57,716 nt of DNA from IMG/VR virus record IMGVR_UViG_3300050501_000396; one strand, 5' to 3'. The notes under the pieces are model-generated. The model saw only the letters and a program-made list of their open reading frames with translations. It was not told where the DNA came from and did no database searches. The DNA comes from a virus. This document shows, one piece after another, positions 34,858-36,262 of the stretch; the first letter of the stretch is position 1; each line of letters starts with the position of its first letter. The position numbers and the translations under genes are program-made.

Positions 34858-35060
34858 GGGCCCAACCTCAGCCGGCGCCGCAGTTGCTCGCGCCGGTCCC
34901 GCTCGTCCAGGCCGGCGCCGAACGCCATGCCTTCCATCTGCGCCCTGTACTGCATGGAGCTCTCGATCCACTGGCGCCGCTGGTCCATGACGACGCGGGC
35001 GAGCCACCAAGCGAAGTCGAGGCCGATGGCGGCGACCATGCACCAGAGCAGGTCGGTCAC
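34854..35060 (-). CDS. small membrane protein (68 aa)
   Basis: GTG 35060 (GTGA overlap); LLWCMVAAIGLDFAWWLARVV. Confidence 0.4.
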   Translation of the reverse strand: MTDLLWCMVAAIGLDFAWWLARVVMDQRRQWIESSMQYRAQMEGMAFGAGLDERDRREQLRRRLRLGP

Positions 35061-36262
35061 GGCGTCACCCGGCGGAAGCTGATCGCCCACACCCACGGGT
35101 TCGACGACCAGGGCGCGCGGTCCTCGTTGATGTCGTTCCACAGACGGCGGAACAGGTCGCGCGCAGGCTTGTAGTGCGCTGGGTTAGCGCCCGCTGGCAG
35201 CATGCCCTCCGCCCGTGCGTCCCTCTCGCTGATGTCCTGCAGCCGCTGGACCCGGACATCCTCAATCTCCAGGGTGATGCGCGAGGCCCAGCGGGGCATG
35301 AAGATCGAGGGCCGCCATGGCTGCTTGGGGGTACGCAGGATAGTCTTGCCCTCGACGATGACTGGCACTTGGCCGCAGTGGTCAGTGTCGGCTCGGTACC
35401 CAAGACCGGCCGGCATCTCGCCGCGCGCCTCGAACATCTGCCACGTCTCTCTTACCCAGAGGAGATCGCCCCGTCGCAGATGGCTCGTATCGAGGCCTGC
35501 GCCACACCGAGAGCACGGGCGGCATGGCTCTGGCTGCACAAACCATGCGTCACCGCCCAGCGAATGTGTTCCCTCTCCACGTCCGTGAACTTCGAGGAGT
35601 GATGCCTCTCGCCCATGGCCACTCGCCCGTGCATTCTCCGGTCCTGCCAGTTCTCGACCTGCGTTCCCCACGCCAGGTTCTCCGGCGCACAGTTGCCCGC
35701 GTCGCCGTCGAGGTGGCGCACTTGCATCGACGGCGACGGCTGCGGCCCGTGGAAAGCCAAGCAGACCAGCTTGTGCACAGTCTTCGTGACCTTCCGGTTC
35801 TCGTGGCAGAGCGTCACAGTCTTGTATGCCTGCTTCGATCCGCGATTCTTTGGCAGTCGCGCCTTCATCGGGGACCAGTCCACCCGCTCTTTGCGACCGA
35901 ACCCGGCGTACCGCGTCCGGCTGTAGATCTGTCCGTCCGAACCCGCCATGTAATCGTCGTTCGGCGAGACCGGGATGGTCCTCAGCGTCACGCCACTCGG
36001 TAGTGTTGTCATGTCCACATCCGTAGCAAGTGAGTCTGCCACCGGGCGCTCCGTAGGGGCACCACTCGGCGATGCACTTCCGCGGGGCGTCGTCGCTCCA
36101 CCATTCGGTCTTCCAGTGCCAGCCGTTCCCGCCCTGAAAAACCATCTCGTTGATACGTCGGTCCGGCTGCGGAGTCATCACCCGACGTGTCTGGCTCTTG
36201 GTCCCGGCGAGTAGGGCCCTGACCATCGGCGACGAAAACAAAATCTGACGCTCACGCATCAC
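35057..36262 (-). CDS. ASCH-like (PUA-fold) phage gene interrupted by a 573-nt insertion; conserved parts 36041..36262 and 35057..35467
   Basis: [16 protein letters not shown]...CPYGAPG || DLLWVRETW...[37 protein letters not shown]; the 191 residues between are Arg-rich off-frame-like sequence. Confidence 0.6.
   Translation of the reverse strand: [401 protein letters not shown]
35452..36012 (-). CDS. HNH homing endonuclease (NUMOD4-like N-terminus + HNH_3)
   Basis: IPVSPNDDYMAGSDGQIYSR...VHKLVCLAFHG...VRHLDGDAGNCAPENLAWGTQVEN; different frame from the host gene; its stop lies 16 nt inside the downstream conserved part. Confidence 0.8.
   Translation of the reverse strand: MTTLPSGVTLRTIPVSPNDDYMAGSDGQIYSRTRYAGFGRKERVDWSPMKARLPKNRGSKQAYKTVTLCHENRKVTKTVHKLVCLAFHGPQPSPSMQVRHLDGDAGNCAPENLAWGTQVENWQDRRMHGRVAMGERHHSSKFTDVEREHIRWAVTHGLCSQSHAARALGVAQASIRAICDGAISSG
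35468..36040 (-). mobile_element. HNH-endonuclease-bearing insertion splitting the ASCH-like gene
   Basis: Boundaries inferred from where the family motif CPYGxPGDxLWVRETW is broken; length 573 nt (multiple of 3); almost fully occupied by the HNH ORF. Confidence 0.55.

Follow-up and report, generated by a model that had tools for sequence, protein, structure and literature searches.

An HNH endonuclease gene in the +1 frame of a stop-free insertion within an ASCH-like phage gene

The IMG/VR virus record IMGVR_UViG_3300050501_000396, whose full 57,716 nucleotides are referred to here as the window, carries a gene for an HNH endonuclease that lies inside another gene. The interrupted gene, called the host gene in what follows, encodes an ASCH-like protein. 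An initial annotation of this DNA had described the HNH gene as inserted within a conserved motif of the ASCH-like gene and read in a different frame, and all the features of that description are present on the minus strand (Table 1). This work concerns the relationship between the two genes, and above all the host reading frame, which is free of stop codons from one end of the interrupted gene to the other.

Anatomy of the interrupted gene

Deletion of the 573 nt of the insert in silico yields a 210-aa product, which gives a single unbroken match to phrog_874 (PHROG 874, "unknown function") with an E-value of 5e-69 and aligns gaplessly with uninterrupted homologues carrying CPYGxPGDRLWVRETW. 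The proposal that the joined flanks reconstitute the uninterrupted family is thereby confirmed. In its insert-free form, the site reads ...TGCCCCTACGGAGCGCCCGGTGATCTCCTCTGGGTAAGAGAG.... More than 7,900 homologues of the host protein were detected; a search for a closely related phage with an empty site led to a nearest uninterrupted homologue that is merely 56-64% identical. The size and span first given for the insert stand, but an imperfect direct repeat on either side leaves a four-codon ambiguity in its precise limits. Both copies of this repeat correspond to GDRL in relatives. The HNH open reading frame (ORF) leaves only 28 nt of the insert uncovered, which agrees with the earlier remark that there is no room for a ribozyme.

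The HNH ORF matches the Pfam family HNH_3 (E 1.5e-11, above the curated cut-off) and phrog_59, "HNH endonuclease" (E 7e-30). The catalytic residues H110, N122 and N131, the conserved His and Asn of the beta-beta-alpha metal motif, are invariant among 27 HNH homologues. The AlphaFold2 (AF2) model of the protein has a predicted local distance difference test (pLDDT) score of 85, and its best Foldseek hit is I-HmuI (1u3e; E 1.2e-5, probability 1.00, root-mean-square deviation 2.8 over 114 columns). More than 230 homologues of the HNH protein share 57-79% identity, while a tblastn search against 50,697 phage records returned a single 38.5% hit, in Aeromonas phage ST4, and no close relative in a cultured phage. 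Judged by these matches, the element is an I-HmuI-like HNH homing endonuclease, ordinary as an enzyme but not in its housing.

The host protein is less easily placed. No Pfam hit was obtained at E up to 0.1, NCBIfam gave no hit, and neither did the sequences of the PDB when searched with the family profile; PHROG 874 is the only match. Its top Foldseek hits are all ASCH proteins (YqfB 9kyf, 3s9x, EF3133 and PH0355), and they are weak (E 5e-3 to 4e-2, probability 0.92-0.99). "ASCH-like" is used here as a fold-level label, which the predicted structure weakly supports. The peptide encoded by the insert in the host frame has no match in Pfam or NCBIfam, nor among 5.8 billion predicted proteins, and a megablast search of the locus against the same 50,697 phage records found no match.

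Gene callers report the HNH gene and a 126-aa C fragment (P0001, 35437..35057) and never the read-through ORF; the N part (219 nt) is left uncalled in public gene calls (L001 9179..9426). Twelve contigs carry the locus of the window, all from one and the same phage. Samples that contain it come from soil and rhizosphere (JGI 3300006847 and 3300006880).

Table 1. Features of the interrupted ASCH-like gene and its immediate surroundings in the window.
Feature	Position	Strand	Remarks
Read-through ORF, 401 codons, stop-free	36262 (GTG)..35057	minus	read from the sequence
Read-through ORF from the likelier start, ATG 36259	35057..36259	minus	400 aa: N part, 191 insert codons and C part
Shine-Dalgarno sequence, AGGAGG	36267..36272	minus	7 nt upstream of ATG 36259
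Host N part, 219 nt, 73 codons	36041..36259	minus	positions 7-78 of the ASCH hidden Markov model (HMM), domain E 4e-21
Insert, 573 nt, 191 host-frame codons, Gly/Arg-rich	35468..36040	minus	sequence and alignment to uninterrupted homologues
Host C part, 137 codons, begins DLLWVRETW	35057..35467	minus	positions 73-208 of the ASCH HMM, domain E 4e-60
Direct repeat, 5' copy, GGT GGC AGA CTC (GGRL)	36032..36043	minus	imperfect, flanks the insert
Direct repeat, 3' copy, CGG GGC GAT CTC (RGDL)	35462..35473	minus	imperfect, flanks the insert
HNH endonuclease ORF, 186 aa and TAA	36012 (ATG)..35452	minus	+1 frame relative to the host frame
Host codons supplying the HNH stop, GTA AGA (Val-Arg of LWVRE)	35450..35455	minus	TAA at 35454..35452
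In-frame ATG (MFEARGEMP...)	35435..35437	minus	14 nt past the HNH stop; start used by gene callers
Upstream gene, 174-aa Cys-rich protein	36259..36783	minus	phrog_1035, E 9e-16
Terminator-like hairpin and T-run	36261..36246	minus	overlaps the ASCH-like start codon

The host frame in related loci

About 105 related loci (GC content 0.38-0.71) were fetched from viral contigs, metagenomes and metagenome-assembled genomes (MAGs), with similarity to the HNH protein as the only bait. All stop-to-stop segments in the three forward frames were searched with HMMs of the HNH protein and of the uninterrupted host family. At nearly all loci, the N part of the host was found upstream of the HNH gene and the C part downstream. 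The loci comprise 80 distinct HNH segments, 71 of which have both host parts on the contig, and at 69 of these 71 distinct loci the two halves are joined in a single stop-free ORF that spans the HNH gene (336-428 codons; GC 0.38-0.69). The same single-ORF pattern is seen on five MAG contigs. In the relatives, the host frame runs one base behind the HNH frame. The insertions occupy three positions in the host protein, all of them variable loops or turns: before the CP(Y/F) motif (class A), within the PGD turn between PG and D (class B, to which the window belongs) and after the (I/V)xYRAD motif (class C).

Within the overlap, every host codon combines the last base of an HNH codon with the opening dinucleotide of its successor, so that a host-frame stop requires an HNH codon with T in third position followed by one that begins with AA, AG or GA. 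At the ASCH-flanked loci, T was found at the third HNH position before these three dinucleotides at 0 of 3,367 sites. Before other dinucleotides its frequency is 6.7-30%, the closest controls being AC (0.067), AT (0.139), GC (0.131), GG (0.263) and GT (0.213). Counted by gene, 74 of 75 distinct ASCH-flanked HNH ORFs contain no host-frame stop, whereas the unused +1 control frame contains 1-16 stops in all 75. Synonymous codon shuffling left the host frame open in less than one trial in 2,000 at low-GC loci (P below 5e-4) and in 1.35% of trials with the HNH ORF of the window (GC 0.64). HNH relatives outside this arrangement do hold host-frame stops, 25 in locus L026, 12 in L081 and 3 in L029. 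On this comparative evidence, host-frame stops are under purifying selection. Since such a stop needs a particular T context, the choice of synonymous HNH codons would be enough to keep the frame open and would leave the nuclease unconstrained.

A different picture emerges when the sequence of the host-frame peptide, rather than its continuity, is considered. When the overlaps are compared in pairs, the HNH frame shows an amino-acid identity of 0.64, against 0.328 for the host frame and 0.345 for the unused +1 control frame; nucleotide identities for the first, second and third bases of the HNH codons are 0.69, 0.76 and 0.43, respectively. By these measures, the insert is constrained in sequence for the nuclease alone, and its host frame is merely kept open. 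The host-frame peptide is rich in Gly, Arg and Ser, with 59% disorder-promoting residues and 20% large hydrophobics, compared with 30% in the host flanks. In the AF2 model of the read-through protein, residues 1-30 and 260-400 have pLDDT values above 90 and residues 58-254 values below 40. Taking both frames into account, the window locus is best classed as a pair of overlapping genes, two long ORFs on the same strand that are each kept open by selection.

At the edges of the insert, the two frames are interlocked in a manner that recurs throughout class B. At all 12 of 12 class-B loci, the HNH stop is formed from GTA followed by AGR or AAA, or from GTG followed by AGA, in the LWVRE motif; such codons are rare in high-GC genomes. 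Thus even the most conserved motif of the host is dual-coded. In class B, the HNH ATG is always supplied by a CAT-G (His) codon pair of the host frame, which lies nine codons downstream of GDRL. An alternative start at GTG 36042, with GGAG 7 nt upstream, was considered for the HNH gene of the window and dropped; ATG 36012 is positionally conserved throughout the class-B relatives.

Could the insert be removed or skipped during expression? Candidates would be a ribozyme that is minimal or acts in trans, a novel form of protein splicing and a long-range ribosome bypass; an unrecognised process of this sort had been among the options first listed. It is the least probable of the explanations considered. 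A scan of positions 34900..36400 against Rfam at E up to 10, the Infernal-type check that had been proposed, returned four chance hits to snoRNA and leader models and no intron model. RNA removal and bypass are further disfavoured because either would make a stop-free insert with a length divisible by three unnecessary, whereas the relatives strictly preserve both properties, which selection maintains. Protein splicing, for its part, requires conserved host-frame residues, and none are found beyond the level of the control frame. The earlier observation that intein blocks are lacking thus holds, given the +1 frame of the HNH gene, the identity values reported above and junction residues that differ among the three insertion classes.

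The interrupted hosts have diverged to a median identity of about 40% among themselves, yet both of their halves keep the residues conserved across 119 homologues without an insert. Because these residues are retained, the interrupted genes do not appear to be decaying. A recently invaded pseudogene in decay, open by luck at high GC, would have suited the window taken alone, where the chance of an open frame (0.0135) is not vanishing and where the 12 locus-bearing contigs all represent the same phage; decayed examples are also present among the relatives (L012, L024 and L040). Nevertheless, the open frame and the conserved halves recur in 12 relatives of class B and in about 57 others, the family HMM matches the flanks in the window with E 4e-21 and 4e-60, and the start signals are intact. 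The chance that the gene is a decaying one, another of the options first listed, is accordingly very slim, with conserved residues kept in both halves across about 70 lineages.

A few relatives deviate from the common pattern. In L026 (2726..3964, low GC), the host gene is split by a related HNH gene with 54% identity; both alternative frames of the HNH gene contain stops (25 and 13), the N part is terminated by a stop, and a separate ATG (MDKGIVYIKEAW...) opens the C part. By its sequence, L026 is a genes-in-pieces or decaying state inside the same family of elements. In L012 (2962..3522), the HNH gene is followed by a remnant of the last ~25 ASCH-like residues (...INGRRGYRWEDNPTVKVIAFQV), the N part is absent, and the -1 frame of the HNH gene is stop-free; the locus resembles what would be left of the dual-coding state once the host gene had been deleted. 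In L024 (2710..3788), the host N part is out of frame with the insert and the C part, with a stop soon after GDRLYLV, and in L040 (321..1544) a single stop codon is situated in a variable loop of the N part. These last two deviations may be sequencing errors, pseudogenes or recoding sites. Two distant HNH relatives, L115 and L116 (GC 0.73), have no ASCH flanks and are uninformative.

Read-through, expression and mobility

The reading proposed here, to which a probability of roughly 0.78 is assigned, is that the HNH gene occupies the +1 frame of a stop-free, in-frame insertion, and that the host protein is read through this insertion and retains it as a loop. Nothing would be removed at the level of RNA or protein. 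Ribosomes starting at ATG 36259 would traverse the 191 insert codons and produce an ASCH-like protein of ~400 aa, in which the insert would form a Gly/Arg-rich and probably disordered loop at a surface turn, between PG and D of CPYGxPGDRLWVRE. Other ribosomes would start internally at ATG 36012 and produce the endonuclease. The read-through protein is thus expected to be both made and functional, and its loop to be disordered. The initial annotation had called a read-through product formally possible. The open frame of 401 codons upholds that statement, which nevertheless understated the case, since stop avoidance in the relatives makes read-through the supported mechanism.

The two host halves might instead be separate polypeptides that reassemble, the C half being initiated at ATG 35437. 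An in-frame ATG 14 nt after the HNH stop had been noted from the start, and it is indeed present. Gene callers predict exactly this C fragment (P0001), the distant relative L026 is really split, and the nrdA gene of Aeh1, interrupted by mobE, offers a precedent (PMC3045599). On the other hand, no host-frame stop exists in the window at which an N fragment could terminate, and the downstream ATG is not conserved: an in-frame ATG in the first 15 codons past the HNH stop is present at just 25 of 66 loci. Re-initiation of the C part, as initially suggested, is poorly compatible with this count. Neither piece would contain the conserved DLLWVRETW stretch, and there would be no reason for the 0 of 3,367 stop-forming contexts. 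The split-gene option therefore retains only a slim chance.

A closer competitor accepts selection for an open frame and assigns it to another cause. The host frame might be open so that ribosomes crossing the insert prevent Rho-dependent polarity, preserve translational coupling to downstream genes or modulate HNH expression, with no need for a single ASCH chain. In its favour, the ASCH-like gene belongs to a tightly coupled string of genes and has overlapping stop and start codons at both of its ends; the ATG at 36259, for example, shares bases with the TGA that ends the upstream gene (TGATG). Yet both ASCH halves keep family-specific residues, so that the protein itself is under selection, and the C half is conserved without a conserved start of its own, so that read-through would be its sole source. 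In addition, most of the RNA would already be covered by HNH translation. This explanation is less economical and is considered unlikely.

Several points nonetheless count against the read-through reading. Stop avoidance, as a pattern in sequences, shows just that translation through the insert matters and is selected, whatever the reason. Judged by itself, the window has an open frame of only moderate improbability (P 0.0135); the argument thus depends on the relatives, and among these L026 is truly split, L024 is frameshifted and L040 carries one stop. No convincing ribosome-binding site or promoter for the HNH gene was found in the window. The low pLDDT of the insert is weak evidence for disorder, as it partly reflects the absence of aligned sequences. 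Function might well suffer from an insertion of ~190 aa when the domain itself has just ~210 aa and the site is a conserved beta-hairpin turn. Finally, the evidence for read-through is strong and wholly computational.

With respect to expression of the nuclease, a consensus scan of the window for an HNH promoter found none. Inserts of classes A and C contain, at their 5' end, a conserved element made up of TTGACN, a 17-nt spacer and TGnTAT(C/A)CT, followed by GGAGG and the HNH ATG, which suggests that in these two classes the cassette brings its own promoter and ribosome-binding site. This sigma70-like element scores at least 9/12 in just 21 of 46 loci of the other insertion classes and is to be regarded as a lead rather than a finding. 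Loci with this promoter-like 5' element include L027 (2937..2965), L109, L105, L103 and L056, with TGnTATCCT or TATACT. In the host frame, the promoter-like element of classes A and C reads ILYRLTDDRIYGIL. The host-frame motif ILYRLTDDRIY was rejected as a case of amino-acid conservation; at the DNA level, it coincides with the promoter-like element. The ILYRLTDDRIYGIL peptide resembles the host motif (I/V)xYRADxD and may hint at a duplicated host segment flanking the ancestral insertion. Common ancestry of the three classes by way of a duplicated host segment around the HNH gene was considered as a possibility.

The distribution of the element shows it to be mobile. L060 and the loci L013, L062, L066 and L067 have HNH proteins that are 94-95% identical in hosts that are 48-52% identical, and the similarity breaks at the 3' junction. 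L020 and L092 share 95% identity in the HNH protein and 51% in the host, and even across insertion classes, L063 (class A) and L100 (class C) share 81% and 38%, respectively. In a control set of 80 viral loci chosen by similarity to the host C part, 76 of the 80 genes are uninterrupted. Sporadic presence combined with horizontal movement is, in these comparisons, the pattern expected of a homing element. The nuclease would presumably cut insert-free alleles and spread by homing.

The surroundings of the locus hold further features. The PHROG annotations of the protein encoded upstream are endonuclease VII, HNH endonuclease and Lar-like restriction alleviation. Since the TGA of its gene reaches into the start codon of the ASCH-like gene, two nuclease-type genes stand side by side. 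The terminator-like hairpin with its T-run (TGATGCGTGAGCGTCA GATTTTGTTT) could influence initiation or coupling; there are 2 terminator-like sites in the region, compared with a mean of 0.8 in shuffles. Elsewhere in the phage of the window (L001/L002), Pfam matches mark a T5orf172/MUG113-type (GIY-YIG-like) protein beside a ParB_N-domain protein at locus positions 704..2240 and a Cpn10 (GroES-like) gene directly downstream of the large terminase at 18273..18662.

Significance and comparison with known systems

A full-text literature search found no description of a homing endonuclease gene in a translated, stop-free, out-of-frame insertion. While the kind of enzyme is known, this way of coexisting with a host gene is apparently undescribed. 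The arrangement has so far gone unnoticed probably because gene callers report just the HNH gene and the C fragment, and it exposes a blind spot of annotation in which the real host ORF is missed. If the reading is correct, there may be a broader class of such insertions that is systematically mis-annotated, with this family as its first member to be recognised. An alternative frame that is continuous with flanking gene halves and totally depleted of contexts forming stops provides a search signature applicable to any genome. Moreover, the niche available to selfish nucleases would be widened by a route into coding sequence that relies on synonymous codon choice alone and requires no splicing machinery. 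The interrupted hosts would also reveal natural permissive sites, with a small beta-barrel protein apparently tolerating ~190 unstructured residues, and in-frame, stop-free nuclease cassettes that spare the target gene could be conceived as a design idea.

Homing endonuclease genes have three textbook housings, namely self-splicing introns, inteins and intergenic positions. The element in the window resembles I-HmuI of Bacillus phage SPO1 and the Mob and Seg endonucleases of T4 in its HNH_3 type and fold, its site in a conserved phage gene, its presence or absence among relatives and its breakpoints at the edges. Unlike them, it neither resides in a self-splicing intron nor lies between genes, but is located within a coding sequence that is still translatable. 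Group I and II introns differ in possessing a ribozyme, which the window element lacks, and in freeing the insert from host-frame coding constraints, whereas the host frame here is strictly stop-free across the relatives. Inteins are closer in one respect, as they too are in-frame insertions at conserved sites that are translated with the host protein; in the window, however, the nuclease is in another frame, no conserved splicing blocks exist and the insert is presumably retained.

Among arrangements that preserve a host function without splicing, the split nrdA gene of Aeh1 is instructive. There, mobE divides the host gene into two polypeptides with their own stop and start (PMC3045599). The window shares with it an endonuclease gene of the free-standing type inside an ORF, but has no stop and implies one polypeptide; L026 is the sole Aeh1-like relative. 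Tolerance of a mobile insertion at the level of translation is likewise known from T4 gene 60, where a mobA-associated bypass skips 50 nt containing stops (bioRxiv 10.1101/2022.08.31.505936). Programmed bypass of that type involves a short untranslated gap, a stop behind the take-off codon and a landing codon that matches it. In the window, by comparison, 573 stop-free nt would be read codon by codon.

Other parallels come from elements and genes that share a translated region. Rickettsia palindromic elements are selfish repeats that are translated in-frame. In hepadnaviruses, the envelope ORF is nested in the spacer of the polymerase, a tolerant and disordered frame (PMC5604429). As in the window, one frame is constrained in such overlapping viral genes and repeats, and the other is just open and harmless. 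Overlapping viral genes, however, were overprinted within one genome, whereas the mobile gene of the window came from outside and the host frame is its passenger. Set beside all of these systems, the family rather probably constitutes a fourth lifestyle for homing endonuclease genes, that of a complete, unspliced nuclease cassette that invades coding genes yet remains harmless through a stop-free -1 frame and a length divisible by three, carried as a disordered loop by at least 70 lineages (GC 0.38-0.71) at three loop positions of one host family.

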